From the IMG/VR virus record IMGVR_UViG_3300045988_180636: a stretch of 33,769 bases of DNA, one strand, 5' to 3'. The position numbers were made by a program, and so were the translations under genes. The stretch is from a virus. The notes beneath the pieces are model-generated. The model worked only from the letters and a program-made list of their open reading frames with translations, was not told where the DNA came from and searched no databases. Positions 5,874 through 33,769 of this stretch are shown here, piece after piece (the first letter of the stretch is position 1; every line of letters begins with the position of its first letter).

Positions 5874-6974
5874 ATGAAAAGAATCACATGGGATTTTCTA
5901 TCAGTTGAGTTGACAAGAAAATGTCAATTAAATTGCAAACATTGTTTTAGGGGTAAGTCACAGAATCTTACCATTTCAAAAGAGACTATAGATAAATTTC
6001 TTAGTCAAACAGAAATTATCGGTTATCTTCACTTTACTGGTGGAGAGCCGACATTAGCAATAGAGGAAATGCGATACTTTTTAGATTGCTTATATAAGTA
6101 TCGCATACCTCTTTTTCATCTTCAGATCATCACAAATGGATATACTAAATCAGAAGAATTTGTACAGGTGGTAAAAGATTATTCAGATATGATTAGATTG
6201 TGTTATATGGACGCTGAAGTAGATATGAAATATTATGTCACAATCGGAGTATCAGTTGATAGATACCATGTAGGTTATGATCCTAAAGAAGCACTTGAAT
6301 ACTATAAGGAAGAGTTAGAAGGATATGCAAAAGTTATTCCTATGACAGATGGCAATATTCCATTTAAAACAGGAAACGGAACAACACTTCTTGAAGCTAT
6401 TCCAGAAATTGATAAACAGGAATTAGATACAAGAATTGAAATTTTATCTAAGGATTTTAAACCTATGTGTCCGCAATATAAAACATATAAACTTTTACAT
6501 GATGAACAGGTATATGTTGTATGCGAAATGAGTTTATCTGCTAAAGGTAATGTAACACTATATAGAATTTGTTCAAATAATGATTATAAATTTGAGGATT
6601 TAGCAAACCAGAATGTATGTAATGTATATGAAACAGATTCAATATACGATTCTATTATTGAATATAACAAGGGTAAAAAATCTTGTTTGGAGAAAATGAG
6701 AGAAGAAAAGATACGGACTAAAGAAAGAGAAAATGATTCAAAATATAAGGCAAAATTATTTAGAAGTATCTGGAATTATATAAAAGTTGTAGGAGATAAT
6801 GCAGCTACGGAAGATATAGTTACATTACTTGCGGATAAAAAGATTACTGATCCTGTAGAGGACGCAGATCAGAGATTGGACGGAAATCTTATACAGATTA
6901 GTGATATTGAACCTGAAAGCATTGTTGACATTATGAAAGATGTTGAAAATTTTGAATATGGAAAAGAGGAATAA
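5874..6974 (+). CDS. Radical SAM enzyme (paralog 1, 366 aa)
   Basis: Canonical CX3CX2C cluster motif in LTRKCQLNCKHCFRG, followed by the GGEP SAM-binding motif (HFTGGEPTL) and ITNG. RBS AAAGGAG. Confidence 0.8.
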   Translation: MKRITWDFLSVELTRKCQLNCKHCFRGKSQNLTISKETIDKFLSQTEIIGYLHFTGGEPTLAIEEMRYFLDCLYKYRIPLFHLQIITNGYTKSEEFVQVVKDYSDMIRLCYMDAEVDMKYYVTIGVSVDRYHVGYDPKEALEYYKEELEGYAKVIPMTDGNIPFKTGNGTTLLEAIPEIDKQELDTRIEILSKDFKPMCPQYKTYKLLHDEQVYVVCEMSLSAKGNVTLYRICSNNDYKFEDLANQNVCNVYETDSIYDSIIEYNKGKKSCLEKMREEKIRTKERENDSKYKAKLFRSIWNYIKVVGDNAATEDIVTLLADKKITDPVEDADQRLDGNLIQISDIEPESIVDIMKDVENFEYGKEE

Positions 6975-7341: not shown

Positions 7342-7865
7342 TGAAAGAGATATTTAATAAAAAAGATTTACAGTTTTTAGGAAAAGCATTTAAGAATCCT
7401 GAATTTGCAAAAGCGTTTATTGTATCAATGATGAAGGATGAAGATTATCAGGAACTAAAAGATTTATATACAAAACTTGATAAAAAGGATATTGAAATTG
7501 AAAATAATCTTAACAATATAATTCTTGCTTCAAAATTAGAAGAACCGGCTGTTACACCAGAAGAGAGAGTACGACAAAATTCTGAAAAGTTAGGTGTACT
7601 GTTTGGAGAATTGTTAGGAAAAATTATTACAGGAAAAAGTATGGGTACTTCATTAAAAGATTATGAAAATCGTGTACCTGTATTACTTCAGGAAAGAGCA
7701 GCTATTATAGATGAAATTAGTACATTATATGATAGTTACAAGGAAGCCTACAACAAAGAAATCAATAGTCAGGAAACAAGAGATATGTTGCTTATGGCTT
7801 TTGGTAAAAAAGATGGAGATATGGAAGGAGAACTTTTAGAATGGATAATGAGACTCCAAAAATAG
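7338..7865 (+). CDS. Hypothetical helical protein in the radical SAM cassette
   Basis: ATGA-type overlap with the preceding stop. 175 aa. Confidence 0.55.
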   Translation: MMKEIFNKKDLQFLGKAFKNPEFAKAFIVSMMKDEDYQELKDLYTKLDKKDIEIENNLNNIILASKLEEPAVTPEERVRQNSEKLGVLFGELLGKIITGKSMGTSLKDYENRVPVLLQERAAIIDEISTLYDSYKEAYNKEINSQETRDMLLMAFGKKDGDMEGELLEWIMRLQK

Positions 7866-8368
7866 CAATGACTTCTATTTATCTTGAAATCACAAGACAG
7901 TGCAACCTTCAGTGTAAGCACTGTCTCCGTGGTGATCCACAGAATATGAGTATGAGCAATAATCAGATAGATAGAATATTAGATAATTTTAATTGGATAG
8001 ACAAGGTTTTTATTGGTGGTGGCGAACCATTTCTTGCTAAAGATTCTATATCCCATTTGTTATCAGAATTAAAAAACAAAATTGAAAAAGGAAAATTTGT
8101 GTGTAGGTGTGTAGGACTTATTACAAACGGTACACAAAGAGACAAGGAAGTGATTACACTTCTAAATGAAATGGGAAAATATCTTAGTGATAAATGGTAT
8201 AAAGAAGATACAAAAACTATTAGCATAGGAATTTCAAAAGATGAATTTCACGATAACAATAGTGAAAATGCTATGGAATGGTTTAAATCTGAATGTGACG
8301 AAAGATATATTAGTTTACATTTTAATGAATTAGATATAGATAAAAGAACAAAAAAAACCAATAATTGA
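7841..8368 (+). CDS. Radical SAM enzyme paralog 2, N-terminal core only (ends just after an A8 tract)
   Basis: ITRQCNLQCKHCLRG (CX3CX2C), FIGGGEPFL and ITNG, collinear with the first 175 aa of 5874..6974. RBS GGAAGGAGAA. Confidence 0.75.
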   Translation: MDNETPKIAMTSIYLEITRQCNLQCKHCLRGDPQNMSMSNNQIDRILDNFNWIDKVFIGGGEPFLAKDSISHLLSELKNKIEKGKFVCRCVGLITNGTQRDKEVITLLNEMGKYLSDKWYKEDTKTISIGISKDEFHDNNSENAMEWFKSECDERYISLHFNELDIDKRTKKTNN

Positions 8369-15822: not shown

Positions 15823-16521
15823 CTATTCGGCTGCGGTTTCCTGTTCTTCCTTCAGTTCACGTTTGTACTTATAGAATGTGTTTCGTGCAAGTCCTGTCAG
15901 CTTCATACAATCAGAATCTTTCAGAGTACCGCCAAAATCAACGGAATGTTTTAATATTTCCGCTTTTTTCTCTATACTCTTCTTTGTTGTGAGCGTCTTT
16001 CCTTTAATACCGCCTATCTGTTTACCGTTGAGCCTTGCCGTTTCAATGCCTTCTTTAGTTCTCTGGTGCAGATCGTCAACCTCTTTTTGAGCCTGTTCAA
16101 AAGCTAATTGTATTTGCTCTTTCGCAAGTGCAAGCAAAAATTTGTTTACACCTTCCAGAATATAATCAGCGTTAGTTCCTGTCATGGCTACACTTCCAGA
16201 AATCGCCTTTTTATAGGTATCTGTGTTTATATGTGGCTCTTTCAGAAATACAAGCGTTATACCTCTATTAAATAGTTCTTCATAGAGTGTATAACCTTCT
16301 TCAGCGTTTCTGGACATTCTGGAAACTGAATCAAATACAATAGTATCATTCGGCTTTATAGTCTTTATTATTTTGTCAAGTTCTTTCCTACCCTGAAATT
16401 TTGTACCTGTATATATTTCTTGCACTATATGAGCGTCAGGAAAAGCCGTTTTTATATTCCTGATCTGTCTTTCTATATTCTGCTTACTGGTACTTATTCG
16501 ACAATATCCGTAAATTGCCAT
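15823..16521 (-). CDS. Small serine recombinase (resolvase/invertase family)
   Basis: MAIYGYCRISTSKQ contains the catalytic-serine motif (Y.R.S). DSVSRMSRN follows. C-terminal HTH (LTGLARNTFYKYKRE). ATG 16521 with RBS AAAGGACGG; the listed upstream extension lacks an RBS. Confidence 0.8.
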   Translation of the reverse strand: MAIYGYCRISTSKQNIERQIRNIKTAFPDAHIVQEIYTGTKFQGRKELDKIIKTIKPNDTIVFDSVSRMSRNAEEGYTLYEELFNRGITLVFLKEPHINTDTYKKAISGSVAMTGTNADYILEGVNKFLLALAKEQIQLAFEQAQKEVDDLHQRTKEGIETARLNGKQIGGIKGKTLTTKKSIEKKAEILKHSVDFGGTLKDSDCMKLTGLARNTFYKYKRELKEEQETAAE

Positions 16522-16565
16522 ATATAACACCGTCCTTTCTGTCGCAATACTAACGACCGTTGAAA

Positions 16566-16646
16566 TTGATACTAAAATAATACCATCCGAACAACCGTTT
16601 GTCAATAACTTTTGATACTAAATGTTGATAGGTTCGTTTTGATACT
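16566..16646. repeat. Four TTGATA(C/G) repeats upstream of the recombinase gene (candidate res/operator subsites)
   Basis: TTGATACT at 16566, 16612 and 16639; TTGATAGG at 16625. Confidence 0.5.
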
Positions 16647-21310: not shown

Positions 21311-21429
21311 TTGCATTTGAAATCTAATTAATTGCAATAACAATCTATTAGAATTGCATTAGAAATAGATTAACAATGCAATGTGTTATTACCTTTTATA
21401 TAATAAGTATCACTAATACAACGGTACAC

Positions 21430-21454
21430 ATATAAAAAGTAATACTTATTATAT
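21430..21454. repeat. 25-nt repeat ATATAAAAAGTAATACTTATTATAT (copy 1)
   Basis: Identical to 21540-21564 and 22761-22785. Contains the near-palindrome AAGTA-A-TACTT. Confidence 0.8.
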
Positions 21455-21484
21455 AAAAAATAATAAAATGAGTGCAAATAAATC

Positions 21485-21513
21485 TTGACTACAGGATCAA
21501 AAAAGAATATAAT
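21485..21513 (+). promoter_or_regulatory. parA promoter (TTGACT-17-TATAAT)
   Basis: Exact spacing. Lies between repeat copies 1 and 2. Confidence 0.65.
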
Positions 21514-21539
21514 AAGCCATATAAATAAATATAAGAATT

Positions 21540-21564
21540 ATATAAAAAGTAATACTTATTATAT
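21540..21564. repeat. 25-nt repeat (copy 2), between the promoter and the parA RBS
   Basis: Exact copy. Confidence 0.8.
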
Positions 21565-21584
21565 TTTGAAAGGAGATTTTGCAC

Positions 21585-22355
21585 ATGAAAGTTATAGCAA
21601 TAGCAAACCAGAAGGGCGGTGTAGCAAAAACTACCACTACTTACAATCTTGCGGTTGCAAAAGCAATAGTCGGAAAAAAGGTACTTATGATTGACCTTGA
21701 TCCACAGGCTAGTTTGACAATTTGTTGTGGTCTTAATCCAGATGATAAAGATTTTGAAAATTACAATGTATGCAAATTATTTGATGGAAAGACAACGGCT
21801 GCGGAATGTGCTTTCAATGTAGAGAGTACAGAACTGGATAACTTATTTATTATCCCATCCAACATTGACCTTGCGGTTACAGAGACAAAATTAGTTGTCG
21901 GTAGGAATAGTGACGTGCAGTTGCGGAAAGCTGTATTGACACTTAAACCATATTTTGATTATATATTTATTGATTGTCCACCACAGTTAGGAACACTTCT
22001 TATCAATGCTCTTGTAGCTGCGGACGAAGTTATTATACCTGTAAAGACAGAATACCTTGCGTACAGAGGATTAAAAGCCTTAATGAGTACAATCAAGGAC
22101 GTACAGAGTGGAGATGGAGACAGATCATTGAATCCTGACTTGATACTCACTGGAATTATCGCTACAATGTACAAAGCTAAGATAAATGATAATCAGGATG
22201 TACTGGCTATGTTGGAACAGAAAGCACCAATTTTAGGTGTGGTAAAGGATTCTGCGGATGTCAACAGGGCGATTGTAGAAGGAAAACCAGTTGTATTATC
22301 GAATAAGAAAGCACCTACGGCAAAAGAATACATGGAAATTGCCTTTAAATTATAG
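21585..22355 (+). CDS. parA: ParA/Soj-family partition ATPase
   Basis: Deviant Walker A in [17 protein letters not shown], then [11 protein letters not shown] and FIDCPP. ATG 21585 with RBS AAAGGAG. Confidence 0.85.
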
Positions 22356-22441
22356 TAATACATATTATATACTAAGTAATACTATGATAATTATAAGTAA
22401 TACTAAGCATATAACAAGTATTAAAGAAAGGATATGAGATT

Positions 22442-22741
22442 ATGGCAACAAAAAGACCACGATTGATAGATACTCTTCAGGAAGAAGAATTACAGGAAAT
22501 CAAAGAAGAACAGGCGAAGGAAACTCCAACCGTTGAAAGAAAAGCACCTGTAGATCAGATTATTTCAAAAGATGGAGCAAAGGACAAACAAATATCTGCA
22601 AAAGTAAATATGAAAATTTACAGTGCATTTACAACCATAAACAAGCTGCAAGGTATATCAAATAATTCGGCATTGAATATGTTAATCACAAAATATGTCC
22701 GTGAAAATAAAGATATTCTGGACGAAGATAATTTATTTTAG
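22442..22741 (+). CDS. Putative ribbon-helix-helix centromere-binding/partition adaptor (ParG/omega-like)
   Basis: 99 aa directly after parA. Disordered charged N-terminus, then ISAKVNMKIYSAFTTINKLQGISNNSALNMLITKYV (beta-strand, helix, helix pattern). Confidence 0.5.
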   Translation: MATKRPRLIDTLQEEELQEIKEEQAKETPTVERKAPVDQIISKDGAKDKQISAKVNMKIYSAFTTINKLQGISNNSALNMLITKYVRENKDILDEDNLF

Positions 22742-22760
22742 AAAATCGGTAATAATAGTT

Positions 22761-22785
22761 ATATAAAAAGTAATACTTATTATAT
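22761..22785. repeat. 25-nt repeat (copy 3), downstream of the RHH gene
   Basis: Exact copy. Additional degenerate AGTAATAC copies lie at 22354-22430 and 23991-24021. Confidence 0.8.
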
Positions 22786-22886
22786 GTAAAAATAAAATTG
22801 CCTATTGATTTTTTTGAAAAATGCTTGTACAATAGATACCAAGTATAGGAATTTGAGTATGAGCATATCGCAATAGTCAATATGAA

Positions 22887-22924
22887 AAGCGGTATGAAGT
22901 TTATCCTCATACCGCTTATTTCAT
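22887..22924 (+). terminator. Terminator of the par operon
   Basis: 11-bp stem AAGCGGTATGA / TCATACCGCTT followed by ATTTCAT. Confidence 0.6.
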
Positions 22925-23255
22925 ACTTACACGTTCTAAAGTTATATATATTGTTATTTTGGTCTGCTTTACCAATAGTAGACCTGTAGCGGATGTATTG
23001 GCAGTACAAACCGTTACGAAAACTACAACTTCATATTAAAGAAAAATCAACTTAGCATAAATTCATTTTTCAAAAAATGAAATTGTGGTAGGGTGTGTTT
23101 CGTTTACACCTTTTTTGTAAGGTATATTCTAAACCATAAATCCCCACCTGTCAAGAATGAACTTGTGTTTGGTGTATTAAAGTTACTCTTTTTTAGAGGT
23201 AAAAGTAATATTTAACATATTCTAAGTATCACTTTTAATATGCTTTAATCAAAAA

Positions 23256-23790
23256 AGTTGGACAGGGTTTCAGGGTTTCTCCTGTATAAACAAATATCGG
23301 TATCGGCAAGCCTAACTAATGAATTGTCGGGGTGGATTCAGTACGTCTATTACTGGATCAATACCTAAGAGGTTGAAGCGAGTGCAAGACCTCATATGCC
23401 TAACCAGATGAATCTATTGGTACGATTAGTCTGTACATTGGTTAAAACTAGCACACGGGGGCGAAAAGTGAGCCTAGACGTACATAGGGTACACTTGACT
23501 ACGGCAACCTGTAGAAATACAGGATTGCGGAAATGGACAAGCACTGGAAACGGTGCGTAGTGTGGGCGTAGATCGACCACTATTAAAGTCCATGCGGACA
23601 CTAAGAAAACCGCACTCATAGATTGAACTGCTCTACAGGGAATACGGATACCTCATGCAAAAGCGGATTATTCGATTTTAGGGCATACCAGAGTTTCTTT
23701 TTCCATGCGATAGGGAAACTCTGCCCTGATACGAGAGCCGTTTCCTATTTCCCTACGGATTATTCGCCTACGGCGGTGTGAAAGTCAAGT
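23256..23790 (+). ncRNA. Candidate large structured non-coding RNA (about 0.5 kb; class unknown; boundaries approximate)
   Basis: ORF-free and visibly more G+C-rich than its flanks. Two GAAA-tetraloop hairpins (23508-23523, 23541-23556). A 9-bp helix CAGAGTTTC / GAAACTCTG (23689-23697 / 23715-23723) is extended by GGG/CCC. TAACCA/TGGTTA (23400 / 23439). GAGGT/ACCTC (23369 / 23390). Duplicated CGGATTATTCG (23664, 23756). Confidence 0.5.
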
Positions 23791-24035
23791 GTATTGACAA
23801 AATTAAAGTAAATAAATTTCAAAAATACCAGGGCGAACAGTTCAATAAATACAGTTCATAAATAAGTGGTGTATGTGTTAGGGTTTTATGTGAGTATATA
23901 GAAGAAAAACAGGCTTTAGTTCACAGGGTATATAAATCTATACTGAAGGTGTTTCGGTTCGGATTTACACTGTACAGATAGTAAAAAATTAAGTAATACA
24001 TAGTATATAAAAGGTAATACCAGAAAGGATAGAAC

Positions 24036-24437
24036 ATGGGAAAAATAAATAATGTAGTAAAGATCATGGAATTTAAAGATGATATGGATTTGTACAACCA
24101 GATAGACCAGTATATGAGTACCGACAGAGAACGATACTGGCGAATAAATAAGCCGTACAAGGTTACAAGTATCAATTTAATAAATGAACACAAAGCGTTG
24201 GTGTACCTAGAGGAAGATTTGAATGTCCTACAGGTACACTTTTTTAATTCTTCTAATGGAGAAGAACTGTTACCAGAAGATGAACCACACACTGAAGAAT
24301 TTCTCACTTATCAGGAAGTGCAGCTTATCAGTGAGTTAGGTTCGATTAAATTTGATGATACTGAATATGATGTAGAGGATATTAAGTATGAAATCAATTC
24401 ATACGGTACACGCTGCATTAACATATATTTAAACTAA
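24036..24437 (+). CDS. Hypothetical protein
   Basis: 133 aa with RBS GAAAGGA. Confidence 0.55.
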   Translation: MGKINNVVKIMEFKDDMDLYNQIDQYMSTDRERYWRINKPYKVTSINLINEHKALVYLEEDLNVLQVHFFNSSNGEELLPEDEPHTEEFLTYQEVQLISELGSIKFDDTEYDVEDIKYEINSYGTRCINIYLN

Positions 24438-31083: not shown

Positions 31084-33769
31084 ATGAATAATTTGATAGA
31101 GAACGATATTTTAATTAGAAACATGGACGCTTCATACCTTTACTGGAAAATAAAGGATGATGGAGCAATAGCAGAATATGAGAATAAAAAGAAAGAGTTG
31201 TCCAGTACGGACAATCAGGAAGTACAAGACAGAGTGCAAGAATTATCTAAGCAGATATTCAGTTTTGGAACTGATATTAAGTTACCAGAGAAGGACAACA
31301 GATATTTGTACTCTGGAACGCTCACAGATAGCCTTATGACACGCAAACTTAGACAGGTGGTAAATAATAAGGATGGAGCAATAAGAAGCGTTAAAACGGA
31401 TTCTACAGCGTCAGGAACGGATTACACCGATATTATTATCAATCTGAAATTCAAGTCTGATGTGATGATCCAGACGGACGAACAGAAGCAAGCATACAAT
31501 CAGGATACAGGGGAAATTGAAAAACTGGACGCTAAGAAGAGTAAGAGACTTATCAGTAAGAAGAAATTGCGTCAGATGGCATACAGAGACGGTGTTACAA
31601 TAAATGGTGTTCATTATGTCAATTTCCAGAGAACAAGTTCTAAGGCAAGAACAGGTAATGACCTTTTCATAGATAAAGATTATTTTGAAGCTATGGAAGA
31701 GTGGCAGACTATGGGAATACCATTCAGAGAGATTTTCAGGGAAGATGATAAGGTGGACATTGTATCTACCAGAAGTTATGAAGCCTTGACCTCATCATCC
31801 ATTATCGGAACACTTGACATTGATCCGTATTCAATCCTACTGATAGATGAAGCTGACGGAACATATACAATGCCTTGCAACGTAGTAACACTGAATGAAG
31901 AGACAAAAAGGTTACAAGTTTCAAAACAGGATTATGAGAAGCATATCGACCTGTGGGATGGACAGAGCCTTGCGGATGAATCAATCTTTAATACTGGAAA
32001 ATACTTCAATCGCAAGGACGGTAAGGAACACACCTATGAGGGAAAAGGATTCTTGCTTTTGAGAAATCACTTCTTTAAGAGTGCGATATTCAATACTAAG
32101 CTACAGGAATATTACAGTGAGAAGTTCAAGGGTGTAGATAATCCAGTAGTAAAAGATAAATACGGAGAGACATTCAATCCACAGGATATTAAATTGGTTA
32201 CTACAAAGAACAGTGTTAAGATATTGAAGTTTGCGGATATTATCGCTACATACATGGTTGCGGATGATGAAAAAGAAAAGCTGAAGGAACTTGAATCTGA
32301 AAGACAGAAGTTCATTAACGAATGTTCCAAAATTAGAAACAGGGTGTCTACTGCAAAGAGAAAACTTACAATTCTTACTAAGGACACGAACGCTACTGTA
32401 GATGATATTCAGGTGGCACAAAATGAACTTGACCTTGCACTTGCGGATCAGAGCCGACTTCCTGAAATCGAAGCAGAGATTAAAAAGCATGACAAGCCGA
32501 TAAAATTTGAACAGGAAAAATTGACCTGGCGTTGGTACAGGGAACAGTTAAAGAAGAATCAGGATAAATTCGGTGTATGTAAGTATGAGAAGGTATCTAA
32601 ATTCGGAGAGCGTCAACAGTTATGGTATCAGGTGTTAGGTAGCTTGAATCTGAACGAGGAACAGTTGTGGCAGATTGTAGAACCACAGGTGCATGAGATA
32701 AATCTTTTGAAGAAATATCCAGCTTTTTTGAAACACTCACTGAATACAAAAGCTGCCGACACAGATAATATCGGAGCAAGGATGATGAAAGAATTATTAC
32801 AGGTCAATGAAGATATTACTAAGACTTCATGGTACACGAATTACAGAAGGTCATTTATCAGTAGTATTCTTGATCGCCTGTATGAAGGTAAGGTGCAGTT
32901 AAACAATTCAGACTTTTGTACATTGGTTGCTAATCCTTTTGAAATGCTTAGAGCGTCCACAGGAGAAAGAATTGATACAAGTATCTTATCCGACTTCCAG
33001 TGTTATTGTAGCCGATATGCAGATGGAGAAGAACTGTATGGCTTTAGAAGTCCGCATATAGCAATCGGAGAGAACGCTATCCTGACAAATACAGACCGTA
33101 AGGAATGGAAGTGGTTCAACTTCACTGATAGAATCTTAGTCATAAATCTGTTTGGTAAAGGTGCTTTCCTGTCGGATATATGGCAGGGTTGCGATACAGA
33201 TTCGGACGTAGCCTATATCGGTAATGATCCTGTGGTCTTAGAAGCTACAAAGTCAACGGTAAATTCTGGTAAATATCTTATTCCTATCAATGGGTTATCC
33301 CCTGAAAACGATCCAAAAAACTATACAGATGAAGAAATGGCAACGATTGACGGTAAGTTAGCAAATGACTTTATCGGAAAGATTTGTAACCTTGCAAGAG
33401 ATTTACAGTGTTTCTACTGGCACTTGTACAATACAGGTACAGAAGAGAACAAAAAGAAATATCTGCCACAGATTTATGATGATATTTGTATTTTGGCGGT
33501 TGCGTCAAATATCGCTATCGACAGTGCTAAGAGAAGATACAAAGGTGTAAACCTTGCAACAGAAATCAGTGAGATAAGAAAGCGTCCGTATCTACAGGCT
33601 GAAGGTGTGGTGCTTCGTGATGATGGAACTTTACTCATTACAGAGAAGAGATATAAGAAAACATTATCAGAAGAAAGCGTCCGCAAGTATCAGGATTATG
33701 TGCAGCGTAGGAACAATGCCACTACACAGAAAGAGATAGAAGAGTGTACGACAGAAATCGACAAAATTC
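31084..33769 (+). CDS. Single-subunit two-barrel RNA polymerase (YonO / cellular RdRP-like), N-terminal 895 codons; continues at 1..933
   Basis: No stop from ATG 31084 to the window end. The translation YGFRSPHIAIGENAIL-(about 30 aa)-INLFGKGAFLSDIWQGCDTDSDVAYIGND matches the RdRP/YonO pattern R.P....G(D/E)...G.D.D.D (DxDxD at 33193-33207). The upstream WDGQSLADESIF ... FLLLRNHFFKSAIF resembles the DG.G / R..G.KG barrel motifs. Confidence 0.6.
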   Translation, partial: MNNLIENDILIRNMDASYLYWKIKDDGAIAEYENKKKELSSTDNQEVQDRVQELSKQIFSFGTDIKLPEKDNRYLYSGTLTDSLMTRKLRQVVNNKDGAIRSVKTDSTASGTDYTDIIINLKFKSDVMIQTDEQKQAYNQDTGEIEKLDAKKSKRLISKKKLRQMAYRDGVTINGVHYVNFQRTSSKARTGNDLFIDKDYFEAMEEWQTMGIPFREIFREDDKVDIVSTRSYEALTSSSIIGTLDIDPYSILLIDEADGTYTMPCNVVTLNEETKRLQVSKQDYEKHIDLWDGQSLADESIFNTGKYFNRKDGKEHTYEGKGFLLLRNHFFKSAIFNTKLQEYYSEKFKGVDNPVVKDKYGETFNPQDIKLVTTKNSVKILKFADIIATYMVADDEKEKLKELESERQKFINECSKIRNRVSTAKRKLTILTKDTNATVDDIQVAQNELDLALADQSRLPEIEAEIKKHDKPIKFEQEKLTWRWYREQLKKNQDKFGVCKYEKVSKFGERQQLWYQVLGSLNLNEEQLWQIVEPQVHEINLLKKYPAFLKHSLNTKAADTDNIGARMMKELLQVNEDITKTSWYTNYRRSFISSILDRLYEGKVQLNNSDFCTLVANPFEMLRASTGERIDTSILSDFQCYCSRYADGEELYGFRSPHIAIGENAILTNTDRKEWKWFNFTDRILVINLFGKGAFLSDIWQGCDTDSDVAYIGNDPVVLEATKSTVNSGKYLIPINGLSPENDPKNYTDEEMATIDGKLANDFIGKICNLARDLQCFYWHLYNTGTEENKKKYLPQIYDDICILAVASNIAIDSAKRRYKGVNLATEISEIRKRPYLQAEGVVLRDDGTLLITEKRYKKTLSEESVRKYQDYVQRRNNATTQKEIEECTTEIDKI
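33715..33769. repeat. 55-nt terminal duplication of positions 1-55 (circular assembly overlap)
   Basis: AATGCCACTACACAGAAAGAGATAGAAGAGTGTACGACAGAAATCGACAAAATTC is present at both ends. Confidence 0.95.

Follow-up and report, generated by a model that had tools for sequence, protein, structure and literature searches.

Introduction

The question that we address here is whether positions 23256-23790 (+ strand) of a virus DNA in IMG/VR (record IMGVR_UViG_3300045988_180636) encode a structured RNA and, if so, how it relates to known RNA families and what it may do for the element that carries it. We refer to the whole of this virus DNA, 33,769 nucleotides (nt) in length, as the window. An initial annotation, made from the letters of the window alone, had proposed a highly structured non-coding RNA of ~0.5 kilobases (kb) on the + strand and was reminded of the large RNAs ROOL and GOLLD. 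Large, intricately folded bacterial RNAs are rare, and OLE, GOLLD, ROOL, HEARO and raiA have each opened new biology. That 23256-23790 is a real structured RNA gene we now regard as practically certain. The RNA lies outside every curated family and is most likely a distant, larger relative of GEBRO and throat-1, plasmid RNAs that have been little studied.

Homologous copies and a covarying fold

BLASTN searches with the RNA region, and with 14.8 kb around it, report no match in the phage and plasmid collections, and no cultured representative of the RNA is found in those collections. Homologs were gathered through the proteins encoded nearby and through scans for conserved words. The IMG/VR contigs reached by neighbouring proteins match the intergenic region of the RNA at 77-93% over ~610 nt. 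A pattern of two words from invariant stretches (GCAAGACCTCA..CTATTGGTA) adds one more viral contig, three contigs from metagenome-assembled genomes (MAGs) and ~70 human-gut metagenome contigs; single patterns of 14-16 nt produce mostly chance matches, and were filtered with nhmmer. Dereplication leaves 43 additional unique full-length copies (from IMG/VR, human-gut metagenomes and the three MAGs), 512-551 nt in length, which form 10 lineages at 90% identity and have pairwise identities of 60-93%. The search for homologs by BLASTN or nhmmer that the initial annotation had suggested is answered by these 43 copies: homologs exist, in human-gut metagenomes. All alignments and all counts over 44 copies consist of the window RNA and its 43 unique homologs.

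On the 44-sequence alignment, RNAalifold proposes 83 basepairs, of which 34 have compensatory changes. The 3' third of the RNA was misaligned by MAFFT, and realignment with L-INS-i results in a consensus of 118 basepairs in approximately 25 helices. The pairing that RNAalifold had initially proposed between the 5' word GGACAGGGUU and 23716-25 is displaced after realignment by a covarying local hairpin, and we discarded it. We compared the 118-pair model to controls in which the pairing partners are slid by 1-3 columns. Canonical pairs fill 91.9% of the cells in the model versus 35-40% in the controls, 43 pairs change on both sides versus 8-13, and the covariation score is 0.248 versus at most 0.069 for the slid controls; none of 500 shuffles attains the values of the model. 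With just one sequence per lineage, 94.9% of the cells are canonical and 41 pairs are compensatory, versus 5-12 in the controls. There are 718 G.U cells versus 53 A.C cells, from which it follows that the + strand is the folded strand; six of the pairs are near-invariant G.U, and many unpaired nucleotides are invariant. The core claim of a highly structured RNA on the + strand is thus borne out by covariation over 44 copies.

The folding energy of the window sequence shows the same strand preference. As RNA, the + strand folds to -165 kcal/mol, with a minimum-free-energy z-score of -3.24 and 0/100 shuffles as good, versus an unremarkable z-score of -0.90 for the - strand. With DNA folding parameters we obtain z = -3.32, and RNA and DNA folding energies do not tell the two molecules apart.

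The element is non-coding. It includes short open reading frames (ORFs) only, and the one ORF listed in the initial annotation (75 amino acids (aa), minus strand, 23392-23619), which had been found not credible, is intact in one of the 44 copies, over which its variable columns lack 3-periodicity (46/50/47). The contrast in composition noticed before is real as well, with a G+C fraction of 0.44-0.45 across 23250-23700 versus 0.26-0.31 in the flanks and 0.354 for the whole window. The limits first proposed for the element nearly coincide with those of the block of homology common to otherwise unrelated small plasmids, which ends at 23250/23251 and at 23791.

Most of the individual helices first read by eye are retained in the consensus. 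The hairpin GCACTG-GAAA-CGGTGC (23541-23556) is supported and its GAAA loop is conserved. For the hairpin CCTGTA-GAAA-TACAGG (23508-23523), the position is right and the stem covaries in 7/9 pairs, but the GAAA loop is not conserved. The 9-basepair (bp) helix CAGAGTTTC/GAAACTCTG (23689-97/23715-23), flanked by GGG/CCC, is found in place and supported. The helices GAGGT/ACCTC and ACAGG/CCTGT are present and conserved, but their changes are one-sided only. The proposed TAACCA/TGGTTA helix overlaps the covarying helix 23405-09/23429-33 and cannot form in full. The duplicated word GGATTATTC occurs in exact copies at 23665 and 23757, with GGAUUAUUC conserved at both sites in nearly all copies.

Relation to known RNA families

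Nowhere in the window does any Rfam family attain its gathering score, so that the covariance-model scan of the region suggested at the outset reports no known family at curated thresholds. In particular, ROOL (RF03087), GOLLD (RF01998), OLE, raiA and the group I and group II introns have no gathering match over the whole window, nothing at E<=10 over 22800-24100 or 23200-23850, and nothing at E<=1 in 12 homologous loci. ARAGORN finds no tRNA genes in the window. The kinship with ROOL and GOLLD that had come to mind is not upheld. Other weak matches obtained with Rfam in E-value mode (to microRNA, snoRNA and similar models) fall outside the RNA, and we attribute them to chance.

The family that does show similarity is GEBRO (RF02988). 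In E-value mode over 22800-24100, the GEBRO model makes a local match in the window with 22.4 bits, at 23515-23613; this match is seen with 1.3 kb searched and is not reported with 651 nt (23200-23850), despite filters that are expected to be laxer. Six divergent homologs match the GEBRO model at positions ~240-338 with 29-37 bits (E-values from 6.5e-7 to 1.7e-4). True GEBRO RNAs, those of pUA140 and pSt0, score 347 and 290 bits versus a gathering score of 284.7. In the reverse test, a 94-position model of the module (R1), built from the gut RNA copies alone, finds the GEBRO RNA at the right place in both pUA140 (31.7 bits, E-value 6.6e-8) and pSt0 (22.3 bits, E-value 7e-5), with nothing unrelated above 13.7 bits in 753 kb.

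The two RNAs share a three-way-junction module of ~94 nt with the same junction sequences, which reads GGA.A.GGACAA, a GAAA hairpin, a hairpin with loop AGGGCRUG..GAC, AAAGUCC and a further hairpin. In the window its parts are, in order, GGAAAUGGACAA, the GNRA (GAAA) hairpin 23541-56, the hairpin 23557-83 with loop GGGCGU..GAC (the shared form of this loop being AGGGCGUG..GAC), AAAGUCC, and the hairpin 23594-613. Thirteen of the 23 pairs in the module have compensatory changes. In GEBRO, a long-range helix (model positions 113-121/342-350) closes the 3' domain, and analogous covarying long-range helices are found in the gut RNA at 23452-54/23663-65 and 23457-60/23651-54. The 5' strand of the closing helix is immediately followed by the motif GGGGGCGAAAAGUGAG in the gut RNA and by AGGGCGAAAGUAGG in GEBRO; by eye, both have a GGGCGAAAGU-type motif there, and both include the word GCAAGACCU(U)CA. 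The 5' hairpins of GEBRO (model positions 7-22 and 60-98) are left unaligned by the covariance model in the window and in the homologs.

Both RNAs occupy a G+C-enriched non-coding stretch on Bacillota plasmids that encode a type IV coupling protein and no Rep recognisable by Pfam. The gut RNA is ~185 nt longer, with another 5' domain and an additional 3' extension, and the word GCAAGACCUCA lies outside the closed domain in the gut RNA and inside it in GEBRO. GEBRO is carried by 5.6-8-kb Streptococcus plasmids, and the gut RNA by gut phage-plasmids and par-bearing plasmids. BLASTP finds no protein in common between the carriers; the coupling proteins are 26% identical over 120 aa only, and are no more than distant relatives. 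In the rolling-circle plasmids of Streptococcus, GEBRO sits between a predicted single-stranded DNA (ssDNA) origin and the double-strand origin, whereas the gut RNA sits downstream of parA and its partner gene. Within the literature searched, Weinberg et al. 2017 (PMC5737381) is the only one that deals with GEBRO.

Throat-1 (RF03110) has a more restricted but longer similarity. On L245, a lineage of the L002 type, its model aligns over positions 1-334 of 334 with 29.6 bits (E-value 2.6e-5), with many mismatched pairs. In this alignment, hairpins and junction words appear in the order that they have in throat-1, the same 3' module included; the gut RNA runs ~200 nt past the throat-1 end. Throat-1 has no match in the window itself, and just one lineage of those tested gives E<1. 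Throat-1 is not known from outside throat metagenomes.

Considering the module and the order of elements around it, we find evolutionary kinship of the RNA with GEBRO and throat-1 quite probable. The initial suggestion of a possible new class stands insofar as no family is found at gathering score, and it is qualified by the GEBRO module, detected in both directions, and by one lineage that aligns end to end with throat-1.

Domain organization

Long-range closing helices delimit three domains in the RNA (Table 1): 23258-61/23785-88, which is invariant; 23300-04/23728-32; and 23452-54/23663-65 together with 23457-60/23651-54. In the 5' domain, compensatory changes occur in 6/7 pairs of helix 23335-43/23351-59 and in 3/5 pairs of helix 23405-09/23429-33, and in one lineage this domain aligns with the 5' part of throat-1. 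The 3' extension includes a long hairpin (23681-83 + 23689-98 / 23714-23 + 23724-26), whose closing pair after the L-INS-i realignment is C-G in 26 copies and U-A in 15, and a hairpin at 23765-68/23772-75, in which 3/4 pairs are compensatory (GCC/GGC to AGC/GCU). It also supplies the 3' strands of the long-range helices, 23728-32 pairing with 23300-04 and 23785-88 with 23258-61.

One segment has two partners. Positions 23451-54 covary with the hairpin loop 23382-85 (U-A 25, C-G 19; 44/44 paired), and also with 23663-65, ~210 nt downstream. The two pairings may correspond to a pseudoknot plus a false helix, or to two alternative folds as in a switch. A simple covariation screen for extra pairs was swamped by one-sided transitions, with 23382-85/23451-54 as its sole standout. 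We also considered a four-way junction closing the RNA, in which 23284-90 would pair with the second GGAUUAUUC word; it is compatible with the sequences, but has no compensatory change and clashes with G23284 of the 5' hairpin, and we rejected it.

Table 1. Coordinates in the window of the RNA gene, its domains and conserved words, and the neighbouring genes and signals.
Feature	Positions	Strand	Remarks
Structured RNA gene, ~535 nt (copies 512-551 nt)	23256..23790	+	Homology block 23250/51-23791, 118-pair consensus, GU excess, z -3.24
5' domain	23258..23450	+	Invariant motifs GCAAGACCUCA and CUAUUGGUA
5' domain helices, part 1	23263-68/23278-84; 23305-09/23324-28; 23330-33/23363-66	+	
5' domain helices, part 2	23335-43/23351-59; 23369-74/23388-93; 23405-09/23429-33	+	
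Central domain, resembling GEBRO 3' domain	23451..23665	+	Closing helices 23452-54/23663-65 and 23457-60/23651-54, both covarying
Three-way-junction module, 94 nt	23526..23619	+	GEBRO model ~240-338; GGAAAUGGACAA, then hairpins
3' extension, ~125 nt, absent from GEBRO and throat-1	23666..23790	+	Two GGAUUAUUC words inside
First GGAUUAUUC copy, conserved single-stranded word	23665..23673	+	
Second GGAUUAUUC copy	23757..23765	+	Minus strand reads -10-like hexamer AATAAT
Conserved putative sigma-70-like promoter, pointing into the RNA gene	23759..23788	-	TTGACT-18-AATAAT, scores 10/12
Conserved upstream box TGTCAAGAAnGAAC..TTYGGTRTATTAAA	23149..23181		16-75 nt upstream of RNA 5' end, all lineages examined
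Second promoter-like site TTAACA-18-TAATAT	23212..23241	+	Within AAGTAATA-type repeat; phage-plasmid lineages only
~21-nt repeat AAGTAATAC..TATATAAAA (AAGTAATAC.TATTATATAAAA), one copy	23200..23229		
parA, partition ATPase, first gene of portable cassette	21579..22355	+	Pfam AAA_31/CbiA/ParA; 80% nucleotide identity with small plasmids
99-aa ParA partner gene	22442..22741	+	No Pfam family; C-terminus read by eye as ribbon-helix-helix

A portable cassette in phage-plasmids and small plasmids

Positions 1-55 of the window are identical to positions 33715-33769, and because of this 55-nt terminal overlap the window is a complete circular element of ~33.7 kb. It encodes phage proteins (large terminase, portal, scaffold and major head protein), and a Pfam search also identifies the plasmid-type genes ParA and ArdA. 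By eye, the gene at 15823-16605, with a translation starting ...MAIYGYCRISTSKQNIERQ, reads as a serine recombinase. From this gene content we read the window as a phage-plasmid. Its terminase is no more than 25-29% identical to that of any deposited phage, and the nearest matches of its ParA (43-46%) come from plasmids of Flavonifractor, Enterocloster and Clostridium. GC skew is monotonic along the window and uniformly positive on the + strand, and nearly all genes read in the sense of that strand. As a separate observation on this element, the translations of ORFs 5874-6974 and 7841-8368 start with CxxxCxxC-type motifs (..CQLNCKHC.. and ..CNLQCKHC..), which suggests radical-SAM enzymes within the phage-plasmid.

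The RNA is found also on circular contigs of 5.9 kb (L189), 10.3 kb (L210) and 11.6 kb (L187). The window and these three plasmids have only three blocks in common: parA (21523-22354), the partner gene (22422-22837) and 23250-23791. In most lineages, a gap of 650-820 nt separates the 99-aa partner gene from the RNA, which follows it on the same strand. A cassette of parA, the small partner gene and then the RNA moves between small plasmids (circular, 6-12 kb) and phage-plasmids (circular, 31-41 kb). The neighbours downstream of the RNA vary between lineages and are convergent, on the opposite strand, in the small plasmids. Four lineages have another parA next to the RNA, 35% identical and on the opposite strand. 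Because the downstream genes vary and parA can be replaced by one on the opposite strand, we conclude that the RNA is a stand-alone gene.

The carriers belong to human-gut Bacillota, probably Clostridia. The small plasmids carry a type IV coupling protein, ADP-ribosyltransferase, ArdC, resolvase and coiled-coil proteins; neither Rep nor relaxase is recognisable in them by Pfam or NCBIfam, and a rolling-circle Rep is not recognisable in any carrier. The coupling-protein gene of L189 seems to be truncated, with an ADP-ribosyltransferase fused to it (284 aa). GEBRO plasmids likewise have a coupling protein and no Pfam Rep, although ORF1 was taken for a rolling-circle Rep by the authors who described them (PMC3547324). 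In the RNA copy that diverges most (L194, 11272-12914; 64% identity), the gene immediately upstream of the RNA encodes a tyrosine integrase, phage structural genes lie alongside and parA is missing, from which it follows that the RNA occurs also on an apparently integrative phage.

Promoter-like signals, repeats and ends

On the + strand, the conserved upstream box contains a TG-extended -10-like TATTAA (23173-80). On the minus strand, the same box provides TTGACA (23154->23149)-17-TAGAAT (23131->23126), with 11/12 positions matching. This near-consensus leftward promoter (23126-23154, - strand), conserved in all lineages examined, points away from the RNA to a 13-bp two-way terminator-like hairpin at 22887-22917, ~210 nt off, which leads us to suspect a second small transcript within the 0.5 kb that separate the RNA from the ParA partner gene.

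The ~21-nt repeat also forms clusters at 21387-21575, 22345-22423, 22739-22796 and 23983-24019, in both orientations and often 21 nt apart. Its sites are found before parA, in the gap between parA and partner, after the partner, at the presumed RNA promoter and before the next operon. The repeats are probably centromere or operator sites bound by the 99-aa partner, or else a promoter type shared within the partition module.

At the 3' end of the RNA, a promoter-like TTGACN-17/18-AATAAT on the opposite strand is present in 43 of the 44 unique copies, formed by the invariant + strand words GTCAAG and GGATTATTC. It could be the promoter of a countertranscript, an ssDNA promoter mimic, or a by-product of constraints on the RNA. 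A short U-rich run usually appears a few bases past GUCAAG at the 3' end. Between the partner gene and the RNA there are terminator-like hairpins.

A proposed role in element maintenance

The explanation towards which we lean, by a small measure, is a stand-alone RNA gene, an enlarged relative of GEBRO and throat-1, that serves the maintenance of its element. The RNA would be a multi-domain fold of ~535 nt with the GEBRO/throat-1 module at its centre, a 5' domain of its own, and a 3' extension of ~125 nt with two GGAUUAUUC words. It would be transcribed from the conserved upstream box, with ends near those of the fold, and would serve the maintenance of its own element by acting in replication initiation or copy-number control. 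We picture it as a primer-type RNA or one associated with the origin, perhaps kept in check by a transcript that starts at the conserved promoter of the opposite strand. This maintenance role, preferably in the form of replication initiation or copy control, we propose tentatively. We favour it because elements otherwise without shared genes have nothing but the cassette in common, because the small carriers show no recognisable Rep, because the place of GEBRO in its own plasmids is the replication region, and because the conserved opposite-strand promoter recalls countertranscript control. In pUA140-type plasmids, GEBRO has been placed in a G+C-rich stretch with the predicted ssDNA origin on one side and the nick site on the other (PMC5737381, PMC3547324).

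The gut RNA, with its ~0.5 kb in the maintenance region of plasmids that lack a recognisable Rep, has analogies in the RNA II primer of ColE1 with its countertranscript RNA I and in the ARRPOF region of pKH9. In this Fusobacterium plasmid, ARRPOF lies within a 1-kb region that is free of genes and sufficient for replication (PMC5737381). As with ColE1, a promoter on the opposite strand is conserved in the gut RNA, but here it lies at the 3' end and not at the 5' end, and the analogy would be one of function only, with no relation in sequence or structure expected.

Several observations weigh against this explanation. The gathering threshold of GEBRO (284.7 bits) is reached neither by the window (22.4) nor by the homologs (29-37), that of throat-1 (124.4) is not reached by the 29.6 bits obtained on L245 only, and the kinship with both is drawn from one module plus overall order, which could instead be a recurrent structural motif. 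The promoter-like upstream box has a poor -35, and there is no clear intrinsic terminator after the RNA gene. The 33.7-kb element itself encodes helicase-like and topoisomerase/primase-like genes, and the GC skew of the window has no origin-like switch. The lack of a Rep is an absence of evidence, several ORFs of the small plasmids being unannotated. The setting of L194 implies that the RNA is not strictly tied to plasmid partition, and the conserved unpaired nucleotides fit a tertiary-structured RNA or a ribonucleoprotein at least as well as a primer.

This last point leads to the main rival, which we judge unlikely: an ornate trans-acting RNA with a role unrelated to replication, which in the manner of ROOL, GOLLD or OLE would fold or self-assemble into a large RNA or RNA-protein particle and serve, for instance, in encapsulation, counter-defence or host manipulation. 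In its favour, the RNA is large and multi-domain, many of its unpaired nucleotides are invariant, six G.U pairs are nearly so, and a GNRA loop is conserved; the RNA resides in three kinds of elements (phage-plasmids, small plasmids and an integrase-bearing phage without parA) with no fixed downstream neighbour; and ROOL, GOLLD and OLE have been reported to form RNA-only assemblies (PMC12286853). ROOL and GOLLD resemble our RNA in size and in residing in phage-related elements of Bacillota, but similarity to them is undetectable, and tRNA genes, frequent beside both, are absent here. More generally, the RNA has no sequence or structure match to ROOL, GOLLD, OLE or raiA and no tRNA genes nearby, and an ornate trans-acting RNA leaves unexplained the tight co-transfer with parA and partner and the retention on 6-kb plasmids. 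To actual membership in ROOL or GOLLD, to a chance G+C-rich spacer and to a decayed gene we assign next to no probability. Nothing but size and phage setting suggests them; Rfam gives no ROOL or GOLLD match at any threshold, a chance spacer is excluded by the strong covariation, and no reading frame is conserved.

The functional molecule might also be folded ssDNA, an oversized single-strand-origin (sso)-like lagging-strand origin or promoter mimic, exposed on the displaced + strand in rolling-circle or sigma-mode replication, on which RNA polymerase would start a primer. Weinberg et al. (PMC5737381) raised such a possibility for GEBRO. The folded strand is the + strand, in whose sense nearly all genes read and whose GC skew is uniformly positive; the DNA folding z-score is -3.32; and TTGACN-17/18-AATAAT is present on the complementary sense in 43/44 copies, as an ssDNA promoter mimic would need. 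With ssoA-type origins, the gut RNA has in common a strand-specific folded element with promoter-like hexamers. It is, on the other hand, much larger, the 535 nt being 2-3 times the size of known sso elements, and its features are typical of RNA: 718 G.U(T) cells, six near-invariant wobble pairs and a conserved GAAA tetraloop. Neither an RSB nor a CS-6 (TAGCGT) signature is seen in the quoted stretches of the window, where no formal search for them was made. A promoter-like box is conserved upstream on the + strand, and a rolling-circle Rep is unrecognisable in every carrier. All considered, we find this reading improbable. A cis-regulatory element is more improbable still, and its variable context largely refutes it. 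The RNA does precede the next + strand gene by 245 nt and shares its strand, as a leader (riboswitch or attenuator) of the operon starting at 24036 would, and it lies downstream of parA and the partner gene, as a 3' untranslated region (UTR) of the parA operon would. However, the downstream genes differ among lineages and are on the opposite strand in the small plasmids, and the stretch from the RNA to 24036 has a repeat/promoter region of its own. As for a 3' UTR, the adjacent parA is on the opposite strand in four lineages, and terminator-like hairpins intervene between the partner gene and the RNA.

A bolder version of the maintenance role can be formulated, which we consider doubtful: the RNA itself would be the replicon. 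A family of gut Bacillota plasmids and phage-plasmids would then replicate without a Rep protein, with initiation organised or primed by the tertiary-structured RNA or its ssDNA image and copy number set by a countertranscript from the conserved opposite-strand promoter, and GEBRO and throat-1 would be smaller versions of the same device.

Significance

This analysis adds a new large RNA of ~535 nt, with more than 40 covarying pairs, found in at least 10 lineages and on dozens of human-gut metagenome contigs. What is new about it is that it appears to be an enlarged variant within a GEBRO/throat-1-like group, abundant in the mobile elements of the human gut. Through a shared structural module, it would tie together the orphan motifs GEBRO and throat-1, and it places the GEBRO/throat-1-like group in a defined setting, that of a portable cassette of parA, partner and RNA. 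The finding raises the question of whether a structured RNA is part of the replication or maintenance machinery in plasmids without a recognisable Rep, and the 5.9-kb circular plasmid L189, being small enough for synthesis and dissection, offers a compact experimental system in which to ask it.

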